Virus record (IMG/VR): IMGVR_UViG_2923302340_000009
Location: 1 to 54,993 of that record
DNA length: 54,993 nucleotides
Origin: a virus
Taxonomy: Duplodnaviria > Heunggongvirae > Uroviricota > Caudoviricetes
Direction: 5' to 3' (one strand)
The notes beneath the pieces were generated by a model. It was not told where the DNA came from. It ran no database searches and saw only the letters and a program-made list of their open reading frames with translations. The translations under genes were made by a program, and so were the position numbers. Position 1 is the first letter of the stretch, and every line of letters starts with the position of its first letter. Below are positions 22,425 to 40,829 of this stretch, piece after piece.

Positions 22425-23178
22425 TCTTCTCCTCCTCTGTTGATTGTCGCAGTCCGGATTCAAATGCCGCAGCCGCCCAGGCGGGCGGTTTAAGACCGGC
22501 TGCACGGCGCTCCATCGTTTCACGGACCTGCTGGGCAAAAATTTCCTGATAGTCGTCACCGCGTTTTGCGCACTCTTTCTCGTAGGTGCTCAGTCCGGCT
22601 TCTATCAGCATCACCGCTTCCTGTACTTCTTTCAGACCATCGATGGCCATACGACCGGAGCCTATCCAGTCACAGTTCCCCCAGGCACTGCGGGCTTCCT
22701 GAAAGCTGAAGCGCGCTTTTGAAGGTAACGTCACCACGCGGCGAACGATGGCCTCTTCCAGCCAGCACAGAAACATCTGGCTCGCCTGACGGGATGCGAC
22801 GAATTTTCGCCGCCCCATAAAGTACGCCCACGACTCGTTCGCGCTGGCCCGTGCCGTGGAGTAGCTCATCTGGGCGTAATTCCGGGAAAGCTGCTCATAC
22901 GAGACACCCAGCCCGGCAGCGATATACCGCAGCAGTGACTGCTCAAACACGGAGTAGCCGTTATCCGTATCCTGAGCCGTCTGCAGGTTCAGTGAGTCAC
23001 CCGGCATCAGGTGCGGCACTTTTGCGCCTCCAAGCCGGACCGGCGCTGCGGCGTAATACGCGGCAATTTCACCAATCCAGCCGGTCAGCTTGTCCCGCTG
23101 CTCCTGACTGTTCGCGCCCAGAATAAAATCCATCGCTGACTGCGTATCCAGCTCACTCTCAATGGTGGCGGCATACAT
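22405..23178 (-). pseudogene. B: portal protein B, 3' part (codons 277-533)
   Basis: MYAATIESELDTQSAMDFILGANSQEQR...EEEKSDSRAA is the C-terminal 257 aa of lambda B. It is separated from the 5' part by 10.9 kb. Confidence 0.93.
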
Positions 23179-23186
23179 CGCCTTTA
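23170..23186. repeat. island-proximal att repeat (core cata[c]atcgcctt)
   Basis: The 13-mer catacatcgcctt (23172-23184) recurs as cataaatcgcctt at 34072-34084, exactly 10,900 bp away. The extended match is 14/17. Confidence 0.85.
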
Positions 23187-23258
23187 TGAAAAGACAGGAA
23201 AAAATAAAATTTAAAAACAGTACATTACGAATGCTCAGACCTATCGTTTAAAGGAGTC

Positions 23259-23280
23259 GCAATACACACTGCAATACACG
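23259..23280 (+). repeat. two direct copies of GCAATACAC(A/G); candidate integrase arm-type sites
   Basis: The copies gcaatacaca (23259-23268) and gcaatacacg (23271-23280) lie ~80 bp from the att core. Three more copies sit at the other island end. Confidence 0.6.
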
Positions 23281-23313
23281 ATTATTTATAAGATGAGCGG
23301 CATCCGTCATAAA

Positions 23314-23552
23314 GCTGGTGGATGCTTTTTCTATGCATATATGCACAGTTTTAGTGGGCGTTAATGTCGATATAGGGATCCCCATATCGAGATTGGATAC
23401 CTGGCTTTTTTCCGGTTAACCTTTAATCAGGCTGGTGGGCTTTACCTGTTTTGTATGAGTGGTCATCATGACCATGTCATAACAAAAACCCCATATTCGT
23501 GGTTTTTCTGTGTCGGGCTATTCTGTCGTTGCTGTGCTGATTTGGCTGGTGG
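23314..23552 (+). repeat. three co-oriented Chi octamers (GCTGGTGG) in non-coding DNA
   Basis: Exact gctggtgg occurs at 23314-23321, 23431-23438 and 23545-23552. Confidence 0.9.
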
Positions 23553-23620
23553 GCTGAATCATCATTACGGCGATGCAGCTATGTAGACGTTCCGGCCTCC
23601 TCAAATTGAGGATTGTGGAA

Positions 23621-23769
23621 GAATCAATGGGTTAGTCTTACTTTCCCGACATCCCCCAATGGGGGTTTTCGAAACAATCAATAGCTTAGGCTTACTTCCC
23701 CGATTTCCTGCATTGCAGGTTTTCGAAATAATCAATGGGTTAGGCCATCGTGCAATTTTGCACTTTGCC
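23621..23769 (+). repeat. tandem units (54, 54 and ~41 bp), each an AATCAATRGSTTAG box plus a short GC hairpin and T-run
   Basis: Unit A (23621-23674) and unit B (23675-23728) are 42/54 identical. The hairpin cccccaatggggg in A becomes cctgcattgcagg in B through paired substitutions. The third unit carries gtgcaattttgcac. Confidence 0.75.
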
Positions 23770-23954
23770 AGCCAGCGCAATGTCGCGTTATCAGTCCTCA
23801 GATGTGAGGGATGTAGCCAGCTTTTCCCCCAGTGGGGGATATCCAGCACCGACGGCTTAACTGTGCGTGCCAGCACAAGGTAGCCTTGAACTACTTACTG
23901 CATCCCATCTTACAGGCCGTGCCTTCCTGCTTAACTTTTTGCAATGCAACAAGT

Positions 23955-23978
23955 CAGCCAGCGCAATTTTGCGTTATC
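23955..23978 (+). repeat. 24-bp direct repeat cagccagcgcaatNtNgcgttatc (second copy)
   Basis: The first copy lies at 23769-23792 and matches 22/24. It contains the small palindrome cgcaa-tt-ttgcg. Confidence 0.7.
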
Positions 23979-23993
23979 GGGAATATCAGCAAG

Positions 23994-24275
23994 TTACCGC
24001 CGCAATCGTTCCGGCTTCTTCCACTGGTAAGTATTTTTCGCGCTCTCCCTCCGTTGTTGAGAAAGGCGACGATATGCCAGCAACTCAAGGACTCTTGTTC
24101 GTATGTTGCGCATATCCACGCCGTTAAGCTCAATACCGTCACGGCGCATCACCTCAGCCACTACACGCACATAATTATCTGCGGTCACGCTGTCCGGCTG
24201 CGTGGCCTGTTCGTCATGCTGCTTGCTGATTCCACAAGCACGGCGGATTAATCGCAGTATTTCGGATTCAGTCAT
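23994..24275 (-). CDS. hypothetical basic protein downstream of the island small terminase
   Basis: 93-aa ORF, 12 nt after the terS-like stop. No family recognised. Confidence 0.5.
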   Translation of the reverse strand: MTESEILRLIRRACGISKQHDEQATQPDSVTADNYVRVVAEVMRRDGIELNGVDMRNIRTRVLELLAYRRLSQQRRESAKNTYQWKKPERLRR

Positions 24276-24286
24276 AGCGTACTACG

Positions 24287-24829
24287 TTACTTATCTTTAT
24301 TCGGCTGCAACTTATCCGGTACGTTTCCGGCAGTTTCCATCAGATAATCGGACAGCATCAGCGGTATGTTTTCGTCAAGTTTTGCGCATGCGTTACAGGC
24401 TCTGATAACTTCTTTTTTCAGTCCATCCAGCATAGACGGCTTCATGTCGGGAAACTTCCTTGTCATGGCAAGCGGCAGGCTGTCCATGATTGAAGAAATC
24501 TGACTCGCCAATTTTGAAAGCACGTATATACAAAACGCTGTATCAATAACGTCGCCGCGTTCGCGCTCGTTTTTAAGCTCCTGCGCCTCTGCCTGTGCTG
24601 TCAGCAATCTGATCCTGACTCGTAGGAGTTCATCATCATCAATCTCGCCTTTGTCGTCTGTAATCTGGTTAATTGCATTGCTAACCCGATTGTCTATTAC
24701 GCTGGCAACATCATAAAACGCCTCGCGGCCTTTACGTTCAACGGGAGTCACTCCCCACTTGTCGAACGCTGTCGCACTTACACGGCAGCTTTGCGCCATG
24801 TTTTTTTTGTTCATCAGGTGCGATTTCAT
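24287..24829 (-). CDS. small terminase subunit, Nu1-like (island-encoded)
   Basis: The C-terminal half (AQAEAQELKNERERGDVIDTAFCIYVLSKLASQISSIMDSLPLAMTRKFP...) aligns with Nu1 in this same window (AQADAQELKNARDSAEVVETAFCTFVLSRIAGEIASILDGIPLSVQRRFP...). The N-terminal wHTH part is diverged. The start at 24829 follows a GGGGA RBS; the ORF track starts at a GTG at 24841. Confidence 0.85.
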   Translation of the reverse strand: MKSHLMNKKNMAQSCRVSATAFDKWGVTPVERKGREAFYDVASVIDNRVSNAINQITDDKGEIDDDELLRVRIRLLTAQAEAQELKNERERGDVIDTAFCIYVLSKLASQISSIMDSLPLAMTRKFPDMKPSMLDGLKKEVIRACNACAKLDENIPLMLSDYLMETAGNVPDKLQPNKDK

Positions 24830-24841
24830 CAATATCCCCAC

Positions 24842-25030
24842 TTAAGTAATGTTTCAGGTTGGTGTATTGACTTTATCTTTTCCTTTTTATTCATAGAGAT
24901 AGAGCGAACAACAAAACCACCACCAGCACCCGAAAAAGGCTCATAAATAGCGAAAACCCGCGAGGTCGCCGCCCCGTAGCCTACCGGATCACCGGAAAGG
25001 ACCCGCCAGCCAGAGCGGGCCCTAATTTCA
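24842..25030 (-). promoter_or_regulatory. island cos site (cosQ-cosN-cosB); cosN 12-mer at 24963-24974
   Basis: Positions 24941-25012 are 64/72 identical to the prophage cos (37706-37777). cosN on the coding strand reads GGGCGGCGACCT, the canonical lambda cohesive end. The cosB side toward terS is unrelated to lambda. Confidence 0.85.
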
Positions 25031-25414
25031 TCAACCAATCAGCTTATAGCGACCATCCCGTGCATTGCGGCGTACACGCTCAATCTTGAGGCATAGCGCC
25101 GCATCTGGCTTTTTTGGGACAGGTACGCGGCAATATTCAGAAGCGCGAGGAATATTATTTATCCAGTCGATCACTTCACTTAAATACCAGGCCTTACGCC
25201 CTTCCGTAACCTGCACACGCTCCGGGAACTCTCCACTAGCCTCAAGGTTTAGCAGTGTACGACGACTCAGGGTTGTAATTTCCATCACCTGATTCATATC
25301 AACAAGGCGCTCGCTTAAACACATTTTGTCAGCGATAGCTTTTAATTCCTCTACAGCTGGATTCGGGTACATCATTTCGGCAATTGGCTTAAGGTCATTG
25401 TAATCATTCTGCAT
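25031..25414 (-). CDS. AlpA/MerR-type HTH protein (island late region)
   Basis: 127 aa. The central segment LVDMNQVMEITTLSRRTLLNLEASGEFPERVQVTEGRKAWYLSEVIDWI fits the AlpA-family HTH pattern. Confidence 0.65.
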   Translation of the reverse strand: MQNDYNDLKPIAEMMYPNPAVEELKAIADKMCLSERLVDMNQVMEITTLSRRTLLNLEASGEFPERVQVTEGRKAWYLSEVIDWINNIPRASEYCRVPVPKKPDAALCLKIERVRRNARDGRYKLIG

Positions 25415-25425
25415 TGTATCCCCCT

Positions 25426-25767
25426 TTACACACGAGCCAGCGGCTGAACAGAAATACCTGAGCCAACAAACGCTGCAACCTTTACTGACAGTTCTTTAAC
25501 AGACTCAGGCCAGTTCAGAGCATCAACATTTAAGACACCTGTCTTATAGACCTGAGCCTGTGTTTTTTTCGCGGTGTCGATTTGTACAGCGGAAACATAA
25601 ACCGCTTTACCTACGCTCGAACCATCCCATACCACCAGTGCACCTGTTGCATCTTCCTGCATCAGTGGCGTAAATGCAGGAATTACCCCTTTATTAGCTG
25701 AAAATATCCCCAGCGTAGTCACCAGTGCTTCAGTGCCAGCCATGAGTTCAGTGTAATGAGTAGCCAT
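25426..25767 (-). CDS. head decoration protein D homologue (island-encoded)
   Basis: 113 aa with a strong RBS. It shares the D pattern TPLM..D....LV.WDG....AV...YK.G......L.WPE......AF.G..ISV with the helper D at 20763-21095. Confidence 0.75.
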   Translation of the reverse strand: MATHYTELMAGTEALVTTLGIFSANKGVIPAFTPLMQEDATGALVVWDGSSVGKAVYVSAVQIDTAKKTQAQVYKTGVLNVDALNWPESVKELSVKVAAFVGSGISVQPLARV

Positions 25768-25776
25768 TGCTCCCCC

Positions 25777-26823
25777 TTAGCCAATGCGAACGGTAACAAA
25801 ACGATTGATGCGGGCCGGTATTGGCTGTGGTGCTGAATGTGTCTGCACATATTCAATAGCCGGATCACCAGGCACAATATAGTTTTTCGGTGCAAGTTCG
25901 GCTTTAGTCAGCCCCATTCGGATTAGCTCCGGATCCTGAATACCGCCATAGGCGACAATCCCCTGAAGAGCCGTATTGCCAAGCACCATCAAATCAGGAT
26001 CAAGGAAATGTTTTTCTGTTCCGTCCTCGTCGGTATAACGCCCGCTGTAAACAACAATCGCAACATCGCCCATATACCCTTTAAAACTCACCGAATCACC
26101 AAGGTCTTTAAGGGCCGTTTCCAGTTCGGAATTAGAACCACGACGGGTATCCAAAGCCTCTTTTATCGCTCTGAATGAACGGTATTTCTTCCATACATTA
26201 CCACCCATAATGATGATATTAGTGACGCCCTCACTAAATTCTGCGTAGCTCTCAATATCATCATTTGGATCAAAAGTTTCTTTATCCTTACCTGACCACT
26301 CAGTACCGCCAGACTGAGTGATGATATTTTGTGGTTTTATATTCCAGTCCAGCTCATAACGTTCAATACCATCGCCCTCAATGATATTTTTCCCCGTTGT
26401 GATTGCCTGAACAGCAAGCCATTCAATACGTGCACGAATAGCTTTAGCCTGATTTACAATCGCCTGTTTAACTTTAATATTACGCGCCCCAAAAGCATTG
26501 TATTGCTCAGGTGACACACCAGCAGGGCGCACAGCTAACTTATTTGGATCAATGCTGCTTTTCGGCTTCATATAACCTGGACGAATTGTTTTTGATTCGT
26601 ATCCCTCATCTCGTGAAACTTTACTGCCCACCATAGGAGAGCAAAACGCCGCGATCGGGATATTTGGATCGTCGATCGTATCAAGAATAATGTCTCTCGA
26701 TTCAAACATTACCGAGCGAGTGAAAAACAAACTGGTAAACAACGCATTTAATTTTTTTTGCACATCTTCAGCATTAGCCACCTGCACAAGCTGTGTAGGC
26801 GAATATAAATCAACCATACTCAT
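25777..26823 (-). CDS. major capsid protein E homologue (island-encoded)
   Basis: MSMVDLYSPTQL... compares with lambda MSMYTTAQLL. A long collinear similarity includes GGTEWSGKDKETFDPNDDIESYA...DTRRGSNSELETALKDLGDSVSFKGYMGDVAIVVYSG against the helper E. The start could be 26823 or 26817. Confidence 0.88.
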   Translation of the reverse strand: MSMVDLYSPTQLVQVANAEDVQKKLNALFTSLFFTRSVMFESRDIILDTIDDPNIPIAAFCSPMVGSKVSRDEGYESKTIRPGYMKPKSSIDPNKLAVRPAGVSPEQYNAFGARNIKVKQAIVNQAKAIRARIEWLAVQAITTGKNIIEGDGIERYELDWNIKPQNIITQSGGTEWSGKDKETFDPNDDIESYAEFSEGVTNIIIMGGNVWKKYRSFRAIKEALDTRRGSNSELETALKDLGDSVSFKGYMGDVAIVVYSGRYTDEDGTEKHFLDPDLMVLGNTALQGIVAYGGIQDPELIRMGLTKAELAPKNYIVPGDPAIEYVQTHSAPQPIPARINRFVTVRIG

Positions 26824-26988
26824 CCTCTTTACATTCATTACAAATAATTGTGAATATATTCTATTACCGATGTCTGCTATGCGAACACATGCAACCAAGT
26901 GCAATGTTGTATAAAATATGCCGTAACAACTTCAGTGCTGATAATTCGTGTTAATGTATTTACTTCCTTTGGTCGGGATTTATGTAGC

Positions 26989-27017
26989 ATGCCGGAAAAT
27001 CTATTTTTTTCCGGCAT
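26989..27017. other. 11-bp-arm hairpin (atgccggaaaa-N7-ttttccggcat) between the ssb and capsid genes
   Basis: Read directly. A T-rich run follows on the plus strand only, so its role as a terminator of the minus-strand operon is uncertain. Confidence 0.5.
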
Positions 27018-27034
27018 CTTTTTGTTTGCAGAAT

Positions 27035-27457
27035 TTAAAACGGTATATTATCGCCGTACGGATCATCATTCCCCGACTGTTGTTTTGCCCTGTTCAGTGC
27101 GTCAGTGGCCTGCCCCTGCTGGCCTTTTTTGCCGCCCGGTCGCGCCGTTCGCGCACTGATTACGCTGTCTGCGATAACCTGCCAGCCCCGCCGCGTTTCG
27201 CCGTTCTGGCCTGTCCACTGGCTTACCTGCATGTTACCCGCCACGCTCACCAGTTCGCCTTTGTGGTGTTTTGCCAGTGCGTCGGCCTGTCTGCCAAACG
27301 CCAGGACGGATAACCACATCGTCGCCGTTCCGTCATCTGCCTGGCTGCACGGCAGGGGAACCGCCATACTCGCCATCGCCATTTGTGTCCCTTTGCTGGT
27401 GGTCTTTAACTGCGGGTCAGCCACCAGCCGCCCGTAAGCCGCTATCTGTGCTGTCAT
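27035..27457 (-). CDS. ssb: single-stranded DNA-binding protein
   Basis: 140 aa with an OB-fold-like N-terminus, a Gly/Gln-rich linker and the acidic SSB tail ...DDPYGDNIPF. Confidence 0.8.
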   Translation of the reverse strand: MTAQIAAYGRLVADPQLKTTSKGTQMAMASMAVPLPCSQADDGTATMWLSVLAFGRQADALAKHHKGELVSVAGNMQVSQWTGQNGETRRGWQVIADSVISARTARPGGKKGQQGQATDALNRAKQQSGNDDPYGDNIPF

Positions 27458-27705
27458 GCTGTCTGCTCTCCGGTTTTAACATTGATGGTTGTCACCTGTT
27501 CCGCTTCGGCAATCTCCCGTTCTGTCAGCGTGGCAAAGTTTGCCGCTGCTGTGGTCATAAATGCGCTTATCAGGTCGGGATGTTCCTTCGCGTATCCTGC
27601 CCGTGTGTGGTGGTCTATCGCTTTGATTGCCACCTTTAAGGAAAGCTCTGTCATGTCTAACGCTTTATATTTTGCCTGTGTTCTGTCTCTGCGAATTTTG
27701 GTCAT
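27454..27705 (-). CDS. hypothetical protein
   Basis: The ORF overlaps the ssb start (ATGA). The likely start is MTKIRRDRTQAKYK at 27705; the tracked ORF extends to 27768. Confidence 0.5.
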   Translation of the reverse strand: MTKIRRDRTQAKYKALDMTELSLKVAIKAIDHHTRAGYAKEHPDLISAFMTTAAANFATLTEREIAEAEQVTTINVKTGEQTA

Positions 27706-27818
27706 TTGTCGCCCCTGATTCATGTTTTCGGCTGGCATGTTTGTTAAGTGATTTTTATGTATGCGCATTTATTTTCACCCCCCCTCGTTTAAAAAGTTTT
27801 TAGTTGTGCCTCCCCCCC

Positions 27819-28037
27819 TCTACCCATCTACCCGAATGCTCATCATGTCAGTAATGGCGCCGCTTTCAGCGGGTAGATAGCTTTTTTGACTCCTCTACCT
27901 GCCGTCTACCCTGCTACCTGAAACTGATAAAATCAGGTAGAAGAGGTAGAGAGCTTTTATTAGCCTTCTACCTAGCCCTATATCCACTTATCATGTTGAA
28001 TAATATGCATTTATTTCGTTCAGGTAGATGGGGTAGA
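27819..28037. repeat. island replication origin: at least 10 TCTACC/GGTAGA iterons flanking an AT-rich core
   Basis: tctacc occurs at 27819, 27827, 27894, 27905 and 27967. ggtaga occurs at 27872, 27936, 27945, 28023 and 28032. The AT-rich stretch at 27975-28020 lies immediately downstream of the primase-helicase gene. Confidence 0.8.
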
Positions 28038-28053
28038 TGGCTTTTACAAAAAA

Positions 28054-29808
28054 TTATAAAAACGCGTCGCAATCGTCTGTTGTAATTGCGTTGGTCTGCG
28101 TTACTCCCTTAACTTTTCGCGTAATATATTCATGCCCGTAAACTTTCGCCGCTGGCTTCATGGCCTTGCTGAACTCAGCCACGTTTAGCGGTTTGCTCCT
28201 GCCCGCGTATGCCATAAACGCCAGATAGACGCGGTAAAGGCTGTTCCTGGTCGTGTACTTCACTGAATCACCACCGCCACCCATCATCAGGCCGCGCGCT
28301 TCCTCCAGAAAATTCAGGAACTGGCAAAACTCAATAACCGGATCCGTCTGTTGCTTTATTGCCAGTGCTTCATCACCGTCACGCTGTTCCAGTAGTAAAG
28401 CCCGTGCCTTCTCAGGGTCGGTAAAGTTCGCCAGCAATCGGCGGATAATAACGGGGATTTCAGCCGCAATCTTTTCCGGTAGCTCCCTGTCTTTTTCGGC
28501 CTCACTGACGATATTGTCGAAACGGAAAATCACGCGACGACGTGCCACACCTCCGGCCCGTTCGGTGAATATCATCGGGTTGTTGTTGGTCGCCAGCACC
28601 ACCGCCCTGATTACCGCCGTGAAACGCTTTTCATATTTCGGGTTAATTTCCACGGGGTCGCCGCCTGTGATTTTCTTGATGCCCGTTCCTTCGCCTGTAT
28701 ATTTCGGCTGGTCAGCCAGGACGATAAGACGACTCCCGACAACCTGCGCACGTCCACCAGCATCATCAAGCGATGTCATTTCAGCGCTTACCGTGTTCTG
28801 TTTCCCTGCCAGAAGGCTGGCTATGTGTGTGAATGTACTTTTACCGCTCCCGCCGTCTCCGGTGGCCTCAATAAACATCTGCCAGTCGTACCGGTTCGCC
28901 ATAATCATGTACAGCGCGGCACATATACGCATCATCTTGCGCGGGTCTTTTCCGGCTGCGTGCTCAAGCCATTTATGAAAGTTTGGCGCGTTATCGCGGA
29001 TGTTCTCCCCTGGTGCTGGTGGCGTGTACTCAATGCCGTTGTGCGTGGTGATCCAGTTCTCCGGCGTGTGCGGGGAAAATTCCCCCGTTTTCAGGTCAAG
29101 CGCACCATTGGCGAACGGCAGCAAATCGCCAGACGGCTCGCCCATTGGTTCGGCAATAACTTTTAACGCTTCCACGGCGTTATTGATTACGCGCTTGCTG
29201 AAAGTGGCCCTGTGCTCTGAATAGATCGCCACCATTTCGCGGCTAAGTTCCATTGTGCTGACCGGACACCATACCCCGCCGCGCCATACGTGAACGATTT
29301 CACTTTCAGGATGTACGCAAACGCCATCAAAGCGATCGGCAAGCAACTGCGCGCGCTCACTGTCCGCCATCTGCGAAAGTTGCGCCTTTTGCTTTACCGG
29401 AAGCTCAATGACCAGACCATCAGAAAGATTCTGGCGTTCACGGGCCAGATATTCGCGCCAGGTCTGCACCTCCTGGCCGTGCATACCCTCAGGATAAAAA
29501 TTTGCATCCTGTACGCCTGCTGCCGCCAGCTTCTGACCAATCGCCTTTATCATTACAGGCGCAAGATATCCGGCCCTGTATATGCGTGCTGATTTTCGGC
29601 CTTCCGGCACAATTTGCAGATTATCCAGTTCGGATAGCTGCTGCTCCCCAAGCCACACAGGAGGCTCATTATCTCCGGCCATACGCGCATCATGTTCCTG
29701 CCATTGTTTCGCGTGTGCCCAGGCATCACTACCCGCAAAAATAATTACTTCTGTTCCTTTGTGTTTTATGCCGCGTGACTGCTGTTTTACGTTCGGTGCC
29801 AGTTTCAT
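28054..29808 (-). CDS. primase / SF3-helicase replication protein (P4-alpha / D5-like)
   Basis: 584 aa with a Walker A motif EATGDGGSGKSTF and a central phage/plasmid-primase-like region. It is adjacent to the iterons. Confidence 0.8.
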   Translation of the reverse strand: MKLAPNVKQQSRGIKHKGTEVIIFAGSDAWAHAKQWQEHDARMAGDNEPPVWLGEQQLSELDNLQIVPEGRKSARIYRAGYLAPVMIKAIGQKLAAAGVQDANFYPEGMHGQEVQTWREYLARERQNLSDGLVIELPVKQKAQLSQMADSERAQLLADRFDGVCVHPESEIVHVWRGGVWCPVSTMELSREMVAIYSEHRATFSKRVINNAVEALKVIAEPMGEPSGDLLPFANGALDLKTGEFSPHTPENWITTHNGIEYTPPAPGENIRDNAPNFHKWLEHAAGKDPRKMMRICAALYMIMANRYDWQMFIEATGDGGSGKSTFTHIASLLAGKQNTVSAEMTSLDDAGGRAQVVGSRLIVLADQPKYTGEGTGIKKITGGDPVEINPKYEKRFTAVIRAVVLATNNNPMIFTERAGGVARRRVIFRFDNIVSEAEKDRELPEKIAAEIPVIIRRLLANFTDPEKARALLLEQRDGDEALAIKQQTDPVIEFCQFLNFLEEARGLMMGGGGDSVKYTTRNSLYRVYLAFMAYAGRSKPLNVAEFSKAMKPAAKVYGHEYITRKVKGVTQTNAITTDDCDAFL

Positions 29809-30104
29809 TTTTTACCTCTGAATCCGTTAATCATGGTTTTCATTTTCTGGATATTTCCCCACGCTTTTTCCCTGCTGATGGGCTTACTGCGGGGTGCGGC
29901 ATATACCAGGGAAAAATCACGCCGGAACTGATAAACAGGCATCACGCAGTCATAGCTATACCCCTCACGGCGGTAAGTGATGCGCCGTTCTGCCACGCCT
30001 TTAATCGTTACCGTGCCGCCGTATTTATCGCGGTAAATATCGCCGTTCATAAATTCAGGTCGAGCGGGGCCGCTGGCAATAAAGCCAGAATTTTTCATTT
30101 CCAT
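29805..30104 (-). CDS. DUF4222-like small protein
   Basis: 99 aa. The motif GDIYRDKYGGTVTIKGVAERRITYRREGYSYDCVMPVYQFRRDF resembles DUF4222 proteins. Family recalled from memory. Confidence 0.5.
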   Translation of the reverse strand: MEMKNSGFIASGPARPEFMNGDIYRDKYGGTVTIKGVAERRITYRREGYSYDCVMPVYQFRRDFSLVYAAPRSKPISREKAWGNIQKMKTMINGFRGKK

Positions 30105-30121
30105 ATTATTTATTCCTCGAC

Positions 30122-30343
30122 TTAACTCGACTTATTTGATAGCAGGGCACTATTTATTGCGTCATTGAGTTTTTCTGCTGATTCATCAATAAGTGACAAC
30201 AGGCCATAAGCAATATTTGCATCTTCATTGTCATTTATGCAATCAAGCCACATATTTAATATTGCTTTTGCTGAATTATTTAAAGTTAATGAACTTTCTG
30301 CACATGCTAACAATTTAAAAAAGACTTCCCGTTCTGTATTCAT
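30122..30343 (-). CDS. hypothetical protein
   Basis: 73-aa ORF in the operon, low GC. Confidence 0.45.
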   Translation of the reverse strand: MNTEREVFFKLLACAESSLTLNNSAKAILNMWLDCINDNEDANIAYGLLSLIDESAEKLNDAINSALLSNKSS

Positions 30344-30535
30344 TTAATCCCCCACCAGCTTACTTTCTTCCTCAATCAAAAAACTAGCGACACTTCCCGA
30401 AAGACGCGCCAGTAGGCTCGCCAGTGCGGATATATCAGCATCTGTAATTTTGTTCGGGTATACCTCAAGAAGGCGGCAAATAATTTCTGTCTGGTGCGCA
30501 CGTTCAGCGGCTTCGTGTAATGTAATTTCCTGCAT
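30344..30535 (-). CDS. hypothetical protein
   Basis: 63-aa ORF abutting its neighbours, which suggests coupling. Confidence 0.45.
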   Translation of the reverse strand: MQEITLHEAAERAHQTEIICRLLEVYPNKITDADISALASLLARLSGSVASFLIEEESKLVGD

Positions 30536-30720
30536 TAATGCACCTCTTTTAATTCATACACTGCTGAAATAATGACTTGTGATAAGCCATATTCTGATGA
30601 TTCGCTTCTCACCGCAGCAATAGCCGTCTGAACATTAACAGCCTTCACATTCTGAGCGATACCAATTGTGTGGCCTATTGGGTTAACAGCTCGGGCAAAT
30701 ACACGGAAGGTTTTAAGCAT
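30535..30720 (-). CDS. hypothetical protein
   Basis: 61-aa ORF. Its start overlaps the stop of the upstream gene (ATGCTTAA). Confidence 0.45.
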   Translation of the reverse strand: MLKTFRVFARAVNPIGHTIGIAQNVKAVNVQTAIAAVRSESSEYGLSQVIISAVYELKEVH

Positions 30721-30910
30721 GACTCACTCCCTGGCGGATTTTTGCAGCGAATACAGCAACACAACCGGACGGGCAACGGCTACGCGCTTCGCGTTCCGTC
30801 CAGGCGGTTACGTGGATGATTTGAGATTCTCCGGCACTCAGTGCCAGAAAACGCCACACAAAGGCCGTTTGTGTGTGTACAAGGTGTGGTATATGATTTA
30901 CAGCAACCAT
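30713..30910 (-). CDS. Icd-like small protein (cell-division-inhibitor-like family of P1/P4-type elements)
   Basis: 65 aa, MVAVNHIPHLVHTQTAFVWRFLALSAGESQIIHVTAWTEREARSRCPSGCVAVFAAKIRQG, with an AGGAG RBS. It is the only credible part of the 356-aa tracked ORF. Family recalled from memory. Confidence 0.45.
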   Translation of the reverse strand: MVAVNHIPHLVHTQTAFVWRFLALSAGESQIIHVTAWTEREARSRCPSGCVAVFAAKIRQGVSHA

Positions 30911-30939
30911 AACGGCTCCTAGTTTACGTTGTTGGTTAG

Positions 30940-30973
30940 ACGCCCCGTATGTGTTCCCAGCACTGCGGGGCGT
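30940..30973. other. 8-bp-stem hairpin (acgccccg-N18-cggggcgt) in the leader of the island early operon
   Basis: Read directly. It lies between the operator repeats and the Icd-like start, so it is a candidate leader or antisense RNA element. Confidence 0.45.
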
Positions 30974-31001
30974 TGCTCTTTGTATTTCAACAATCCTTTC
31001 G

Positions 31002-31079
31002 GTGTGTTTCATGTTATGAGCGCATGAAACACACGTCAAGGCTTTTTGTATTTCTTTTTTTGTGTATACTGAAACACAC
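31002..31079. promoter_or_regulatory. operator-like repeats in the divergent control region
   Basis: A perfect 12-bp inverted repeat gtgtgtttcatg (31002-31013) / catgaaacacac (31023-31034) is present. A third half-site tgaaacacac lies at 31070-31079, just upstream of the RHH-like gene. Confidence 0.65.
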
Positions 31080-31100
31080 CGATGATTAGGAGTTTCAGAA

Positions 31101-31406
31101 ATGGCAACGGCTAACAAAAACGCAAAATCACAACTGACAACTGTCAGAGTCCCACTAGATGTTATGCAAGGGATGGAATCCGTTAAGCTGGACGGTGAAA
31201 GCAATGCCGGATTTATCGTAACCGCCATGCGCGGAGAAATAGCCCGCCGCCAAGCAGAAGGCAGCGGAGAAAATCCCCTTGTGTCGTCACTGGATGCCCT
31301 GGCTAAGGTCGAACAAATCGGCATCAAAGCAGCCGAGGAGATCGGGCAACTCGTCACCGTCGCGCGTGAAGAACTCCAGCGACGCAAGGTCAAAGAGCAT
31401 GAATAG
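31101..31406 (+). CDS. putative ribbon-helix-helix regulator (candidate island repressor)
   Basis: 101 aa with an AGGAG RBS. The N-terminus QLTTVRVPLDVMQGMESVKL...GFIVTAMRGEIARRQ fits a beta-strand plus two helices. It is divergent from the replication operon. Confidence 0.45.
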   Translation: MATANKNAKSQLTTVRVPLDVMQGMESVKLDGESNAGFIVTAMRGEIARRQAEGSGENPLVSSLDALAKVEQIGIKAAEEIGQLVTVAREELQRRKVKEHE

Positions 31407-31463
31407 CCAATATCAGCGCCATAGTTTGAGGAACGCAGGCGCATTGCTTTACAGGACAGCACC

Positions 31464-31643
31464 ATGAGCGACACAGAATCAACCAAAACACCATCACCAA
31501 CTCGTAAGAGACGACGCAAAAATATAGCGCATGAACATGAATCAGAAAGATTCGCACCTTGTTCGTTTGCTCTTGAGAAATTCCTTAAAGAGCACAGGAA
31601 AAAGCTCTCGTTGCAAACCTTGGAACGAACCAAATCTGACTGA
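31464..31643 (+). CDS. possible 59-aa basic protein
   Basis: ATG at 31464 with AGGA 7 nt upstream. It encodes MSDTESTKTPSPTRKRRRKN... and is followed by a terminator. It falls below the ORF-track cutoff. Confidence 0.35.
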   Translation: MSDTESTKTPSPTRKRRRKNIAHEHESERFAPCSFALEKFLKEHRKKLSLQTLERTKSD

Positions 31644-31709
31644 TCACATTGCCCACCAGCCGCAAATGTGGCATTGTTGGTGATGCTTTTGTTTTCCCTT
31701 GTTCCCACT

Positions 31710-31739
31710 GGCGACCCTTTTGCGGTCGCCTTTGTTTTG
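31710..31739 (+). terminator. rho-independent terminator
   Basis: The hairpin ggcgacc-cttttgc-ggtcgcc is followed by tttgttttg. Confidence 0.75.
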
Positions 31740-32318
31740 TCACTGAATGCGGTTACCAAAGTAAAACTCAGGCTGATATTCACGTATCAGCGTTTTTTCT
31801 TCTTCCTCCAGCTCACGCTTTTTGCGCTTACATGCCTGTAGCTCCCTCCCCTTCTCGCTGGCACTTATTTGATATTGCTCTTTACGGCGGGAAAAATCCT
31901 GTAATGCACCCCACGGGATACCATAAGTCCCCGTTTTTCTGATACCTGGTATCACATTTCTGAATACCCAGTTACTGAAACGATGAGCAAATGTGCCAGG
32001 CGTCGTTGCTTTGCGGCTGCGGGCTATTAGTTTGTAGAAACCTGACTCAGAGATAATTCTCATATTCTGATTTCCTCCTGGGGTGTAAGTTAAATTTACT
32101 CCCTTTTCATCATCATCAAGCATCTGCAACGCCGTACGCGAATTGGTTAGTTCCAGCGCAGCACAAACATCTTTTGCAACAAACCACGGATCGCCGTTCA
32201 GATACACCACACGAACGTTCACACTATCAAAGCGCAGAACGACGAGATCACGAATATCGCAGAATTTTTTCACTGGACGAGCGTACCCCTTGCCCGTCAC
32301 GGCAATATTTTTATTCAT
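31740..32318 (-). CDS. Bro-N domain protein (antirepressor-like)
   Basis: 192 aa. VRVVYLNGDPWFVAKDVCAALELTNSRTALQMLDDDEKG...ISESGFYKLIARSRK matches the Bro-N pattern. Confidence 0.75.
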   Translation of the reverse strand: MNKNIAVTGKGYARPVKKFCDIRDLVVLRFDSVNVRVVYLNGDPWFVAKDVCAALELTNSRTALQMLDDDEKGVNLTYTPGGNQNMRIISESGFYKLIARSRKATTPGTFAHRFSNWVFRNVIPGIRKTGTYGIPWGALQDFSRRKEQYQISASEKGRELQACKRKKRELEEEEKTLIREYQPEFYFGNRIQ

Positions 32319-32338
32319 CGCGTTTTTACCTTATAGAC

Positions 32339-32361
32339 AAAAAACCCCTCGTGATGAGGGG
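32339..32361 (-). terminator. rho-independent terminator between the alpA-like and bro-like genes
   Basis: The coding strand reads gcccctc-atcac-gaggggtttttt. Confidence 0.7.
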
Positions 32362-32374
32362 CATTATTTACTGG

Positions 32375-32632
32375 TTATTGCTGTTTTGTTTTTCCAGGTT
32401 TCCATCCAGGATGCCACTCACCACGGATCCATGCCTGAACCTCTGAAAGTCGATACCCTGCAGCACGTTCACCGATCTTGATACGTCGCGGGAATTTACC
32501 TGCCTGCTCCATTTTCCAGCGTGTTGAGTTTGCCAGCGTGGTAAGTGCTATGCACTCTTTTTCACGAATGAACCGATCAATGTCCTTCATTGTGCGCAAA
32601 TCGTTTTCATCAACAAGAGAATAAATTGCCAT
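32375..32632 (-). CDS. alpA: AlpA-family transcriptional regulator / excisionase-like
   Basis: 85 aa. FIREKECIALTTLANSTRWKMEQAGKFPRRIKIGERAAGYRLSEVQAWI is the AlpA pattern. It lies immediately downstream of int. Confidence 0.85.
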   Translation of the reverse strand: MAIYSLVDENDLRTMKDIDRFIREKECIALTTLANSTRWKMEQAGKFPRRIKIGERAAGYRLSEVQAWIRGEWHPGWKPGKTKQQ

Positions 32633-32633
32633 A

Positions 32634-33875
32634 TCACACCACCTCTTTATTAAGCTCGATAACGTTGTTGTTAAATCCTGCTATCGTATTAAGGTAATTA
32701 ACCCACATATTAAGCACCTCAAGTTTTTTCTTTATATGCCTGCTTTTATTGTAAACACCAGCAACCCCTTTCACTTTATGACCTAAAAGAAGTTCGACAA
32801 TATAAGGATCCGCCCCCATATCATTAAGCGTAGTGGAAAATGTGCGCCTGAAATCATGTATGCACCACAAGCCATTAGTATCATGACCAAGACGCCTGCA
32901 TATTCTGTTTGCAGCCCCTGTTATTGTCGCCCTTTGCAAAGCACAACCGACAACATAACCGCGATTTTTTGTTTCTGCGTAAAGATTAACGATCCATTGT
33001 TTTATTCCGTCAGGAACAGGCCTTACTATAGCCTCCTTGTTTTTGCTGTGCTCTTTTGGGACTGTCCATACCCAGTTTTTTAAATCCCATTCGTCCCAGG
33101 TGGATAGCCTCGCCTCCTGCTGTCGGCAACCAAACACCAGGCAGATAACCATTATTCTTCGGTTATATATTGATGACAGAGTTAGCAAATTATTACCGTA
33201 AGCATAAGACCATACATCAGCGGTTTCATTGATATTAAGAACGCGATCCCTTATACCGGATGAGCGCCCGACATAACTTACGTTAATATCTCCAAAGGGA
33301 TCGCACGCGATGTATTGCCTGACGCGACAAAAACGCAACGCCTGTTTGATATCAAGAAAAATTGCACCAGACATAACAGGCGCATTTTTTTTGATCCTGT
33401 CAAAGACGGTAAGCCATGTGTGTAATTTGCACTGTTCTATAGCCATATCACCGATATAGGGGAAGATATGCTTTTCAAATCGTTTTATTAAATATTCATG
33501 CTCTTTTCTGGCTGTTGTGGCGTGATTGTCGTACCAGTAAAACAGCGCATCCCTTACGGTCACTGGTTGCATAGTTTTTTCGGCAGCAAGTTTTATTTGC
33601 CTGCGGGGGTCCAGATTTTCAGCCAGCCATTCACGGCACTGATCACGCATGCGCCTGGCCGTTGCAAGAGACATGTCAGGATAGCGACCAAGTGTAAGCC
33701 ATACCGGAGGGAATTCCCTGCCACCAAGACGATAGTAAAAAACAAAGCTGATCCCCCCAACCATGCTTACACGCACAGACAACCCGCGCCCATCCGCTAT
33801 TGTTTTTTGTTTGTCCTGCCGTTTTCCGACAAGACTCTTTAACAGTTTGTCACTGAGTTTGTTTTCAATAGCCAT
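32634..33875 (-). CDS. int: tyrosine integrase, P4-type
   Basis: 413 aa with an N-terminal DUF4102-like arm-binding part and the catalytic motifs HDFRRT, LLGH and a C-terminal Tyr region. It is adjacent to the att repeat. Confidence 0.92.
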   Translation of the reverse strand: MAIENKLSDKLLKSLVGKRQDKQKTIADGRGLSVRVSMVGGISFVFYYRLGGREFPPVWLTLGRYPDMSLATARRMRDQCREWLAENLDPRRQIKLAAEKTMQPVTVRDALFYWYDNHATTARKEHEYLIKRFEKHIFPYIGDMAIEQCKLHTWLTVFDRIKKNAPVMSGAIFLDIKQALRFCRVRQYIACDPFGDINVSYVGRSSGIRDRVLNINETADVWSYAYGNNLLTLSSIYNRRIMVICLVFGCRQQEARLSTWDEWDLKNWVWTVPKEHSKNKEAIVRPVPDGIKQWIVNLYAETKNRGYVVGCALQRATITGAANRICRRLGHDTNGLWCIHDFRRTFSTTLNDMGADPYIVELLLGHKVKGVAGVYNKSRHIKKKLEVLNMWVNYLNTIAGFNNNVIELNKEVV

Positions 33876-33895
33876 TAAAAGCCCTCAAGAGATTT

Positions 33896-33947
33896 GCAAT
33901 ACACACCCATCCCGATCGCCAATTTGCAATACACATTGCAATACACA
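33896..33947 (+). repeat. three direct copies of GCAATACACA; candidate integrase arm-type sites
   Basis: The copies lie at 33896-33905, 33926-33935 and 33938-33947, in the same orientation as the two copies at 23259-23280. Confidence 0.6.
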
Positions 33948-34023
33948 AAACCGCGAAAAACTGGAAGGGTGATGAACGGTCATCAAAAGCATGGAAAACG
34001 ACATTCCAGACGCAGCAAGGGTT

Positions 34024-37004
<2,981 letters not shown>

Positions 37005-37550: not shown

Positions 37551-37790
37551 TGTTCATTCCACGGACAAAAACAGAGAAAGGAAACGACAGAGGCCAAAAA
37601 GCCCGTTTTCAGCACCTGTCGCTTCCTTTCTTTTCAGGGGGTATTTTAAATAAAAACATTAAGTTACGGCGAAGAAGAACGGAAACGCCTTAAACCGGAA
37701 AATTTTCATAAATAGCGAAAACCCGCGCGCCTTCCGCCCCGTAGCCTGCCGGATCGCCGGAAAGGACCCGCCAGCCATTCGGGTTTACTT
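37551..37790 (-). promoter_or_regulatory. prophage cos (cosB-cosN-cosQ); cosN 12-mer at 37728-37739
   Basis: The cosB and cosQ flanks match my recollection of lambda almost base for base. The coding-strand cosN reads GGGCGGAAGGCG instead of GGGCGGCGACCT. Confidence 0.85.
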
Positions 37791-39808: not shown

Positions 39809-40025
39809 TGTTTCGCCGCCGACGAAAGGCCGGGACGCTAATGATTAAAAACTTACATGGGAAATATTGTTATAAACAGTCAACTCAAAAATAACTAAAA
39901 AATCTTATAACTACGCGAATGGCCTTCAAAAGCCGATCCGTGCAACTTGCATAAAACGATCTTTATCAATGAGTTACATGTGTGGTTAAATACCATGCTT
40001 TAAGGACTAAGAGCATTACCAGCAG

Positions 40026-40829
40026 ATGACAGAAAAAGATAACATTGGTAAGTTAATTTGGCATATTGCTTGCGATGAATCTGGCATTGATGGGCAACGT
40101 TTCTACGGCTTTGGCAGTCTGTGGATGAAGTACCAACGCCGTGGGGATTTCTGTCAACTAATCAGAGAACTACGCAGCAAACATGGTTTTTTTGAAGAAA
40201 TAAAATGGCAAAAAGCCCATTCAAAAAGATACTCTGAATTTTATCTTGAGCTGATCGACTTATTCTTTAGAGTTCCTTGGCTAGCTTTTCATTGTATCGT
40301 GGTTGAAAAATCAATAGTAAACAAGGCATTTCATAATGGGGATTATGACCTGGCAAGGAGAAAGCACTTCACAAATCTCATTACCACAAAAATTAGCTCT
40401 GTAATTTCTGCACACCCTGAAAGAGACAGTTACTTCAGGATTGAAGTTGATCCTATCGCATCTCGTTATAAAAAGGCCGATGAAGAACTAAATGTTATTG
40501 CCAATAACATATTGAATAGAAAATTTGGTCGTAAAGGGATAATCAGCAGTGTAGTGACAAAAGACTCTAAAGCATCTGAAAACATTCAGCTAGCCGATTT
40601 TTTCTTAGGTGCGGTTATGTGCGCATATCAAGGAAAAGCTTCATCTGAAGCCAAAATAAGAGTATCAAACTATGTTGCTTCATATTTAGGCTGGGATCAT
40701 TTGCAATATGATACATGGCACACTGAGAGAAAATTTAATATCTGGTATTTTTATGATAAAACTCGAGGGCCACGAGATATAGAAACTCAAAATGTTAGCT
40801 TAAAGTATCCACTTCCCCAAAAGAAATAG
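40026..40829 (+). CDS. DUF3800-like protein (orphan moron, antisense to the late operon)
   Basis: 267 aa, low GC. The motifs HIACDESGIDG, EIKWQKAHS and NIQLADFFLGAV resemble the DUF3800 signature. Family recalled from memory. Confidence 0.55.
   Translation: MTEKDNIGKLIWHIACDESGIDGQRFYGFGSLWMKYQRRGDFCQLIRELRSKHGFFEEIKWQKAHSKRYSEFYLELIDLFFRVPWLAFHCIVVEKSIVNKAFHNGDYDLARRKHFTNLITTKISSVISAHPERDSYFRIEVDPIASRYKKADEELNVIANNILNRKFGRKGIISSVVTKDSKASENIQLADFFLGAVMCAYQGKASSEAKIRVSNYVASYLGWDHLQYDTWHTERKFNIWYFYDKTRGPRDIETQNVSLKYPLPQKK

Follow-up and report, generated by a model that had tools for sequence, protein, structure and literature searches.

Tandem units of a dyad and an IHF consensus, homologous to a segment of lambdoid rha/roi genes, in the non-coding tail of an E. 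coli PICI satellite

The rha genes of phages P22 and phi80 are reportedly linked to IHF, and in HK022 the Roi protein is said to bind within its own gene beside an IHF site, with IHF stabilising the binding. The Roi and IHF sites mapped in HK022 are assumed here to correspond to the dyads and IHF consensus described below. The titles of two papers present rha and roi as genes that inhibit phage growth in IHF-deficient hosts (Henthorn & Friedman 1995; Clerget & Boccard 1996), and in the phi80 record rha carries the annotation "DNA synthesis inhibition in IHF- hosts". This work describes an array of short units in the tail of a PICI satellite, within a window of 54,993 nucleotides (the whole stretch of DNA that was analysed), which share with the intragenic region of HK022 roi and with P22 rha the same dyad position, spacer and perfect IHF consensus, in homologous sequence. 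In the rha/roi genes this site is present as one copy within coding sequence, whereas the islands contain three to six non-coding copies, arranged in tandem or loosely, in which several dyad allele classes stand side by side, and the satellite in the window does so without a Rha protein.

Satellites that carry cis-sites of their helpers are known from the cos-type PICIs and SaPIs, which contain helper cos sites (PMC6092414, PMC6739421), and EcCICFT073 has both a carried cos site and the array. In contrast to the carried cos sites, the site in the array comes from an early regulator gene (a regulator plus IHF) and not from packaging, and it is multiplied and multi-allelic. The IHF sites of lambda attP (H1, H2 and H') and cosB (I1) have the same consensus, an A/T-rich 5' flank and an att- or cos-proximal position in a mobile element, but the array is located more than 400 bp from the att core and 1 kb from cosN, and consists of repeats in the same orientation, each with its own dyad. 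Like F sopC, with its tandem 43-bp units that each contain a short inverted repeat, the array is built of tandem units of ~50 bp with a dyad, and like P1 parS, in which an IHF site lies between ParB boxes, it has an IHF site as an architectural element. However, sopC and iterons use one recognition sequence throughout, whereas the dyads of the array differ from unit to unit and covary, and no partition genes are present; an iteron or centromere array, which needs one common recognition sequence, was therefore rejected. Mosaics of an extragenic palindrome and an IHF consensus are likewise found in the BIME/RIP elements of E. coli, in which REP palindromes flank an IHF site. REP units are ~35 nt long and apparently unrelated in sequence, and BIMEs are chromosomal, intergenic and of other than phage-gene origin. 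The PICI literature searched contained no account of arrays of IHF sites, and as a cis element that closes the late zone of PICIs the array has apparently not been described before.

The window is an E. coli lambdoid prophage with its genes on the minus strand, and near-identical DNA is present in 53 complete E. coli genomes. In the RefSeq annotation of one of these genomes, an island interrupts the portal gene of the prophage; in the window, the C-terminal portal fragment ends at ~23187 and the N-terminal one starts at ~34024. The island is an integrase-bearing satellite of ~10.9 kb, inserted in and co-oriented with a lambdoid late gene, with AlpA and with Bro, replication and late zones, and it belongs to the helper-embedded PICI class (PMC10111431). 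Its genes, all on the minus strand, encode a tyrosine integrase (32634-33875), an AlpA-type regulator, a Bro-N protein, an Icd-like protein, a RepA-family helicase and an SSB, and further a major capsid protein, a lambda-D-like decoration protein, a second AlpA-like protein, the small terminase and a final 93-aa hypothetical protein. The gene for the latter, c0 (23994-24275, minus strand; phrog_1561), is the last of the late zone; its product has a basic C-terminal tail and no PDB or Pfam match, and the pLDDT of its AlphaFold model (57.7) is too low for a structure search. The array lies convergent with c0 in a non-coding tail of ~800 bp (23188-23993) between the island end and this last gene, so that the first-pass annotation of the repeat region as non-coding and near the island end was correct on both points. 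Three Chi sites (GCTGGTGG, plus strand, at 23314, 23431 and 23545, together spanning 23314-23552) are located between the array and the island end; the window contains 12 Chi sites, 10 of them in the island, and by the textbook orientation rule the three tail sites presumably suit an action on RecBCD entering from the cos end of the island. The small terminase gene terS (24287-24841) encodes a product that is Nu1-like in its C-terminal part only, and no PDB relative of TerS was found by sequence, therefore no sequence link to Rpp was found. Since the island encodes no Rha-domain protein, and the host prophage, as far as the window extends over it, contains no roi-type unit, there is no evident cognate binder in cis.

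Some obvious identities of the array could be excluded from this context. The only exact cosN of the island, GGGCGGCGACCT (24963-24974, minus strand), is located upstream of terS and 1 kb away from the array, and the cos sites of EcCICFT073 also lie outside the tail; the array is not a cos site. It is not formed by integrase arm sites either, as the doubled TGCAATACAC motif, the arm-type motif of HE-PICI integrases (PMC10111431), which is expected ~80-130 bp to each side of the attP centre, is found outside the array at 23259-23279 on the plus strand and again at the other island end (33895-33946). A coding gene or pseudogene was likewise rejected. No start codon precedes 23659, no Pfam family was matched, and the homology to Rha is limited to an excerpt. 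When Rha domains were compared by tblastn with the island loci, including complete islands, only residues ~37-78 were matched, in tandem, and the helix-turn-helix and the rest of the domain never were; the islands thus contain an excerpt rather than a gene in decay. The frame that came with the phage gene is still open across three units here and is broken in other islands.

The first-pass annotation had described two 54-bp units and a shorter third one, each beginning with the same motif and ending in a GC hairpin, and every one of its structural observations was reproduced. Tandem Repeats Finder returned 23622-23745 with a period of 54, 2.3 copies and 80% matches; in that register, units 1 and 2 are identical at 42 of 54 positions, and the unit starts are AATCAATGGGTTAG at 23622, AATCAATAGCTTAG at 23676 and AATCAATGGGTTAG at 23730. 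The stems CCCCC/GGGGG and CCTGC/GCAGG are two paired substitutions apart, the small palindromes GTGCAATTTTGCAC (23750-23763), CCCCCAGTGGGGG (23826-23838) and TTGCAATGCAA (~23940) are present, and the copies of a 24-bp direct repeat at 23769 and 23955 are 92% identical. When the register is moved to start at 23592, three complete 54-bp units are obtained (23592-23753), the first of which gains the third dyad, TCCTCAAATTGAGGA. The plan of a unit is a short dyad, a spacer of 9-10 nt and then a perfect IHF consensus, WATCA(A/R)NNNNTTR. On the plus strand, unit A (23592-23645) consists of the dyad TCCTCAAATTGAGGA at 23598-23612, the spacer TTGTGGAAG and the consensus AATCAATGGGTTA at 23622-23634; unit B (23646-23699) of the dyad CCCCCAATGGGGG at 23653-23665, the spacer TTTTCGAAAC and the consensus AATCAATAGCTTA at 23676-23688; and unit C (23700-23753) of the dyad CCTGCATTGCAGG at 23707-23719, the spacer TTTTCGAAAT and the consensus AATCAATGGGTTA at 23730-23742. 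A fourth unit is found at 23962-23996, and together with the second copy of the 24-bp repeat it forms unit E (23955-23996, plus strand), with the dyad CGCAATTTTGCG at 23962-23973, the spacer TTATCGGGAA and TATCAGCAAGTTA at 23984-23996, a match to WATCARNNNNTTR; its final three bases, read on the other strand, form the stop codon of the 93-aa gene.

The DNA between units C and E contains further dyads, also on the plus strand. The palindrome GTGCAATTTTGCAC is an orphan dyad, followed by TTTGCC and without an IHF consensus; in 29 IMG/VR loci and in L004-L007 it is likewise found immediately behind the final full unit. The first copy of the 24-bp repeat, CAGCCAGCGCAATGTCGCGTTATC (23769-23792), is a degenerate form of the CGCAATTTTGCG dyad, and its core, CCAGCGCAATTTTGCG, is the dyad within phi80 rha. 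Two more dyads, CCTCAGATGTGAGG at 23796-23809 and CCCCCAGTGGGGG, are located at 23796-23838, inside a 186-bp segment bounded by the 24-bp repeats; this segment is missing in some related tails (L006, L008, L012 and L013), in which the two repeat copies are joined directly. The dyads differ from unit to unit (TCCTCAA, CCCCCA, CCTGCA, CGCAA and others). For an HTH dimer, 13-bp dyads have an unusually short half-site spacing, a point against the model discussed below.

The conserved "unit start" of the first-pass annotation, AATCAATRGSTTAG, agrees perfectly with the IHF consensus cited in PMC10380432 and PMC9452768, a feature that had been missed. There are six perfect matches to WATCAANNNNTTR in the 55-kb window, and three of the six are those of units A, B and C, all on the plus strand and 54 bp apart; unit E is a perfect match to WATCARNNNNTTR. 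The sequence TTTTCGAAAN immediately 5' of the consensus in units B and C is the A/T-rich element of IHF sites, and the corresponding flanks in units A (TTGTGGAAG) and E (TTATCGGGAA) have a lower A/T content. When both strands of the 55-kb window were scanned for a composite pattern (dyad arms of at least 5 bp, a spacer of 8-13 nt and a perfect WATCARNNNNTTR), five matches were found, four of which are co-oriented within 23622-23996; since the mean in shuffled sequence was 0.1, the composite units are beyond chance. Several unit sets used in this work were gathered with DNA patterns that contain the IHF motif, and conservation of the motif in those sets is partly circular. This circularity was avoided in two samples ascertained by protein, one through the C-terminal half of Roi and the other through the c0 protein. 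The consensus matches make it fairly probable that IHF binds the units of the array.

A search of phage genomes with the array region gave matches only inside roi and anti-repressor genes. Over 50 nt, unit A shares 96% identity with codons ~41-57 of the anti-repressor gene of phage phi330, which encodes a Rha + KilAC protein, and over 53 nt unit B shares 90.6% identity with these codons in VT2-Sakai roi. The dyad of unit C, CCTGCATTGCAGG, is also present in the PALQ class of roi genes, and HK022 roi has it with one outer mismatch. Each unit corresponds to one 18-codon stretch of lambdoid-phage roi/rha, with different units matching different alleles, a relationship that had escaped the earlier analysis. 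The matching Roi and anti-repressor proteins combine a winged helix-turn-helix domain of the Rha type at the N-terminus with a KilAC/ANT domain at the C-terminus, and the units map to the stretch just past the recognition helix, in the wing-coding part of the gene. A sample of 80 roi loci, picked through the C-terminal half of the protein alone and independently of the array DNA, comprised 14 distinct upstream variants, each of which carries at the same codons a perfect IHF consensus together with a dyad in which 5-6 of 6 positions pair. HK022 roi contains CCTGCATTGCAGC + AATCAATGATTTA, and P22 rha, whose protein is only distantly related to Roi, contains GCGCATTTTTGCG + TTTCCGAAAA + AATCAATAACTTAGG. 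In Stx-phage rha, AGCGCAATTTTGCGCT is combined with an IHF motif that has one mismatch, and phi80 rha has the dyad CAGCGCAATTTTGCGCC, the core of the 24-bp repeat of the window, without a perfect IHF site, an observation that also counts against the model. The unit is absent from more distant Rha genes (those of three further coliphages, a Pseudomonas phage and a Paenibacillus phage), and therefore the protein fold does not force it.

The distribution of the array was determined with a 174-bp core in 5,426 complete E. coli genomes. Matches were obtained in 713 of them, with at least 80% of the core covered in 232, and were located either in unannotated DNA or in genes annotated as "phage antirepressor KilAC". 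Array-bearing tails were found in islands inserted in a prophage terminase gene, beside paoD after perC and beside clpS, and also in 29 IMG/VR contigs. In its general form, the unit is a dyad with arms of 4-7 bp, a spacer of 9-12 nt and then WATCARNNNNTTA(G/C); there are at least nine different kinds of dyads among the tails, and the units are co-oriented. The array adjoins the 3' end of c0 in 24 of 33 loci, and in PICIs found only through variants of the c0 protein (at clpS, mdtJI, phoQ and thiM) every tail has two to six units pointing at c0. The repeats are thus present in related islands, including those whose tails were found through c0 alone. The strict 54-bp phasing is particular to the island type of the window, other tails being irregular in spacing, and this restriction to one island type is a further observation against the model. 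The model PICI EcCICFT073 has a layout like that of the window island (capsid, decoration, a 137-aa gene, a 144-aa gene, c0, tail, phoQ), with the 144-aa gene in the position expected for rpp. Its tail (NC_004431, 1388655-1389208) contains three units, apart from cos1 and cos2, and its cos sites are located upstream of the 144-aa gene and, inverted, between the 144-aa gene and c0 (PMC6739421). Transfer by phi80 is ~600-fold above that by lambda (PMC6092414, Table 1); of these two helpers, phi80 has rha and lambda has neither rha nor roi. Representative bacterial genomes were scanned twice, which gave no matches in the first scan and mostly chance matches in the second; the one relevant match was a satellite-like locus of Xenorhabdus ehlersii, where three units are located in non-coding DNA upstream of genes for an Ash-family protein and a DUF927 primase.

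Covariation was analysed in 25 distinct units (12 coding and 13 non-coding) with a dyad of six pairs. In this set, 94.7% of the cells are paired and changes on both sides are seen in five of the six pairs, and the covariation score was 0.514, compared with 0.14 in shuffled sets (0 of 500 reached 0.514) and 0.02-0.08 when the partner column was slid, with the reservation that the units share descent and the counts are therefore not independent events. The covariation that had been noticed between two stems of the window is thus seen as strict Watson-Crick double changes across 25 distinct units. None of the five variable pairs shows one-sided (G-U type) changes, and the palindromy mostly continues up to the innermost A-T pair, so that 1-2 nt remain at the centre; this absence of G-U intermediates and the short centre fit the symmetry of a DNA dyad better than an RNA hairpin. 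Inside rha/roi, the module of dyad and IHF consensus is kept by compensatory changes that alter amino acids. In the phage genes, dyad class and recognition-helix allele furthermore segregate together on different N-terminal and wing backgrounds: the dyad CCTCAAATTGAGG is found with the allele KRHDNVKRTIETLAK, CCTGCATTGCAGG with SRPDNVKISIERLAK, CCCCCAATGGTGG with SRHDKVKQSIERLA and GCGCCAATGGCGA with SQHKDVKRSIERLM. This is how a module of protein and operator specificity would be expected to look. Alternatively, plain linkage could be the source of the co-segregation, because the dyad and the recognition helix are 30-80 nt apart.

The first-pass annotation had offered small RNAs or plus-strand terminators as one explanation of the hairpins. 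An RNA role, in which the units would act as hairpins in a transcript, that is, as weak intrinsic terminators in tandem, an insulator of transcription or small RNAs, draws on the T-rich plus-strand sequence after most hairpins (GGGGGTTTTCGAAA, GCAGGTTTTCGAAA and GCACTTTGCC), on the plus strand folding better than shuffled sequences (z = -2.88, compared with -1.47 for the minus strand), and on the PerC-type PICIs, in which the array comes straight after perC and in sense orientation. Two diverged units elsewhere were also seen, by eye, to contain a G-T pair on the plus strand. However, the Rfam check that the annotation had proposed, made on both strands of 23000-24400 at E<=10, gave nothing relevant; two chance-level matches, neither of them on the units, scored 16 bits against gathering scores of 40 and 80. 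No promoter-like site feeding the array was found on the plus strand, and none of the unit hairpins was flagged there in a terminator scan that called a G+C-rich stem of at least five pairs followed by a T run (at least five T in eight). As RNA, the stems reach only -6 to -8.5 kcal/mol and are followed by only 3-4 T. The lack of G-U intermediates in the five covarying pairs and the centres of 1-2 nt, which do not fit hairpin loops, speak for DNA as noted above, and the motif after each dyad follows the IHF consensus position by position, with its N positions variable. Furthermore, the array in the window is antisense to and convergent with the island operon, and its orientation is not constant among islands (convergent with c0 here, co-directional after perC elsewhere); such flips between island types suit a DNA site better than a transcript. 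They also weaken the idea of an array acting antisense to roi mRNA, as do the island-specific bases at the variable IHF positions (TGGG in the island units and TAAC in the phages). The RNA explanation was not supported by these comparisons, and we regard it as improbable.

Two further explanations were considered. The array might be functionless debris, left as recombination scars or fragments of rha/roi that were taken up by the late zone of PICIs and duplicated by slippage. The units clearly come from phage coding DNA or were exchanged with it, the inherited frame is still open over three of them, their number and order vary among islands, the 186-bp segment with its 24-bp repeats looks like a recombination product, and the late zone of PICIs is dynamic and captures phage DNA (PMC10111431). 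What makes debris improbable is that only the same 54-nt excerpt is ever found, never the flanking parts of the gene, and that co-oriented units keep a perfect IHF consensus and dyads while the linkers diverge. Spacings that break the frame (55 nt, 48 nt and more) are tolerated while the spacing from dyad to IHF consensus is kept, and the same architecture is present in PICIs at at least seven integration sites, in EcCICFT073 and in Xenorhabdus. The array might instead be an accessory element for replication or packaging, IHF-bent and perhaps forming single-strand hairpins, that serves as a second cos-type site or in the processing of concatemers. IHF assists lambda cos function. In the tail, the dyad CGATATAGGGATCCCCATATCG followed by TTTTTTCCGGTTAA resembles the sequence just to the right of lambda cosN, and in other tails TATCAACCAGTTACCGCCG, similar to the end of lambda cosQ, stands ahead of this CGATATAGGGATCCCCATATCG/TTTTTTCCGGTTAA element. 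In addition, the array is always in the packaging end of the island, and by the textbook rule the flanking Chi sites are oriented so as to protect against RecBCD from the cos end. Nevertheless, the functional cos sites of the window island and of EcCICFT073 are elsewhere (PMC6739421), the unit is also present inside phage regulator genes far from cos, and in Xenorhabdus the units are upstream of an ash gene by the primase zone and not by packaging genes, which leaves a packaging role with a low probability.

Among the alternatives proposed in the first-pass annotation, a phased array of protein-binding sites appears to fit best, with a perfect IHF consensus in each unit and covarying dyads. 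We suggest, with a probability of roughly 0.5, that the array in the non-coding tail of the satellite is a DNA-level platform for IHF and a dyad binder, the latter probably Rha/Roi of a helper. On this model, each unit would be a copy of a cis-site that lies within the wing-coding part of lambdoid rha/roi, and each dyad would be the cognate operator of its own Rha/Roi allele, because dyad and recognition-helix allele change together. By bending the DNA next to the dyad, IHF would stabilise the binding of Rha/Roi, as it is said to do for HK022 Roi. The satellite would have multiplied this module and gathered the dyads of the PQIE, PPM(V/G), PALQ and QRNFA allele classes, so that the array could bind IHF together with the Rha/Roi proteins of different helper phages. 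Binding of the dyads by Rha/Roi proteins themselves is held more tentatively, as a possibility suggested by the dyads and their allele classes. More speculatively still, the array might sense helper infection, form a roadblock or insulator where the late operon ends, or act as a decoy for Rha/Roi. It is also conceivable, though we consider it unlikely, that PICIs copied and multiplied the self-operator of rha/roi in several allele classes and thereby acquired a multi-specific landing pad by which the Rha/Roi of the active helper is detected, sequestered or exploited.

The module inside rha/roi clearly exemplifies a cis-site superimposed on a gene. If the landing-pad proposal is true, rha/roi would encode part of a DNA-binding domain on its own binding site, and allele and site would co-evolve. 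The array is present in EcCICFT073, where it is experimentally tractable, and its sequence is tied to Rha/Roi, regulators whose only known phenotype depends on IHF. If the array binds Rha/Roi, the satellite would be reusing a regulatory operator of its helper rather than a packaging site, and the array would provide a direct handle on what Rha/Roi do.

In two IMG/VR loci (L220 and L243) that carry homologues of the array units within the helper-phage regulator gene roi, a single inserted nucleotide in the spacer (TTTTCGAAAAA) frameshifts roi, and both the dyad and the IHF consensus are still perfect. Outside the array, the window contains only one other composite of a dyad and a perfect IHF consensus (39935-39976, + strand; TGCAACTTGCA ... 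TATCAATGAGTTA). This composite is intergenic and lies amid prophage lysis genes, approximately 50 nt upstream of a + strand ORF of 267 aa (40026-40829); it probably represents an unrelated promoter region that depends on IHF. It has been reported that the transfer of EcCICFT073, a model PICI with three units, is approximately 600-fold higher with phi80 than with lambda (PMC6092414, Table 1). Phage phi80 encodes the regulator gene rha, and lambda is without rha or roi; many other differences could explain this gap in transfer.

The late zone of the island ends in a gene convergent with the array (23994-24275, - strand), which encodes a 93-aa protein of phrog_1561 with a basic C-terminal tail and whose stop codon shares bases with the final IHF-like motif. 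The late zone of this PICI family always ends with the gene for this protein, including that of EcCICFT073 (C_RS07030). For the 93-aa protein, 976 close homologues were obtained from a database search, and those with a named source were from E. coli, except for single Shigella and Salmonella entries. No relatives of the protein were found in Pfam or PDB, and the confidence of its AlphaFold model was low. Within the Bro zone of the island, an ORF of 356 aa (30713-31783, - strand) had no Pfam match. The island coordinates at this ORF are shifted by approximately 500 bp relative to the otherwise near-identical island of NZ_CP031134, in whose annotation a gene of this size is absent. This ORF may represent cargo with an accessory or defence role, or else may not be a real gene.

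The island (approximately 23188-34024) is strongly enriched in Chi (GCTGGTGG), containing 10 of the 12 sites in the window, when 2.2 are expected for the whole 55 kb. Three co-oriented + strand copies (23314-23321, 23431-23438, and 23545-23552) are clustered in a 240-bp stretch that separates the array from the island end, and other PICI tails contain similar Chi sites that are likewise co-oriented. According to the textbook orientation rule, the target of these three sites would be RecBCD entering from the cos end of the island. The tail of this island also contains a 43-aa ORF (23455-23586, + strand), which has a hydrophobic cysteine-rich stretch, stops 6 nt short of unit A, and overlaps a perfect dyad, TGGTCATCATGACCA (23460-23474). 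This dyad was seen again in other PICI tails as TGGTCATTATGACCA or TAATCATAATGATTA; the conserved feature is therefore the DNA dyad, because the peptide itself is not conserved. Furthermore, a doubled TGCAATACAC motif near both island ends (23259-23279 and 33895-33946) fits the putative integrase arm-type motif described for HE-PICIs (PMC10111431).

A near-perfect dyad, CGATATAGGGATCCCCATATCG, occupies 23363-23425 together with the GGCTTTTTTCCGGTTAA and the Chi site that come after it, and has counterparts in other PICI tails (L004, 2266-2350 and 2806-2900; L256, 3930-4000), where TATCAACCAGTTACCGCCG stands before the element. A similar dyad is located upstream of the units in the Xenorhabdus locus L156 (approximately 455-475). 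The flanks of this element resemble the lambda cosQ end and the sequence to the right of cosN, but its core is different. The element could serve a different helper class as a cos-like site.

The cos region of the island itself (24842-24975, - strand) contains the exact lambda cosN (GGGCGGCGACCT), flanked by a lambda-like cosQ and by a lambda-like first ~25 bp after cosN, beyond which the sequence is the island's own as far as the chimeric terS. At the equivalent position of the host prophage (approximately 37700-37760, - strand), the flanks and the R-site region are lambda-like. Because GGGCGGAAGGCG replaces the exact lambda cosN there despite these lambda-like surroundings, the prophage may have a defective cos alongside an intact cos in its satellite.
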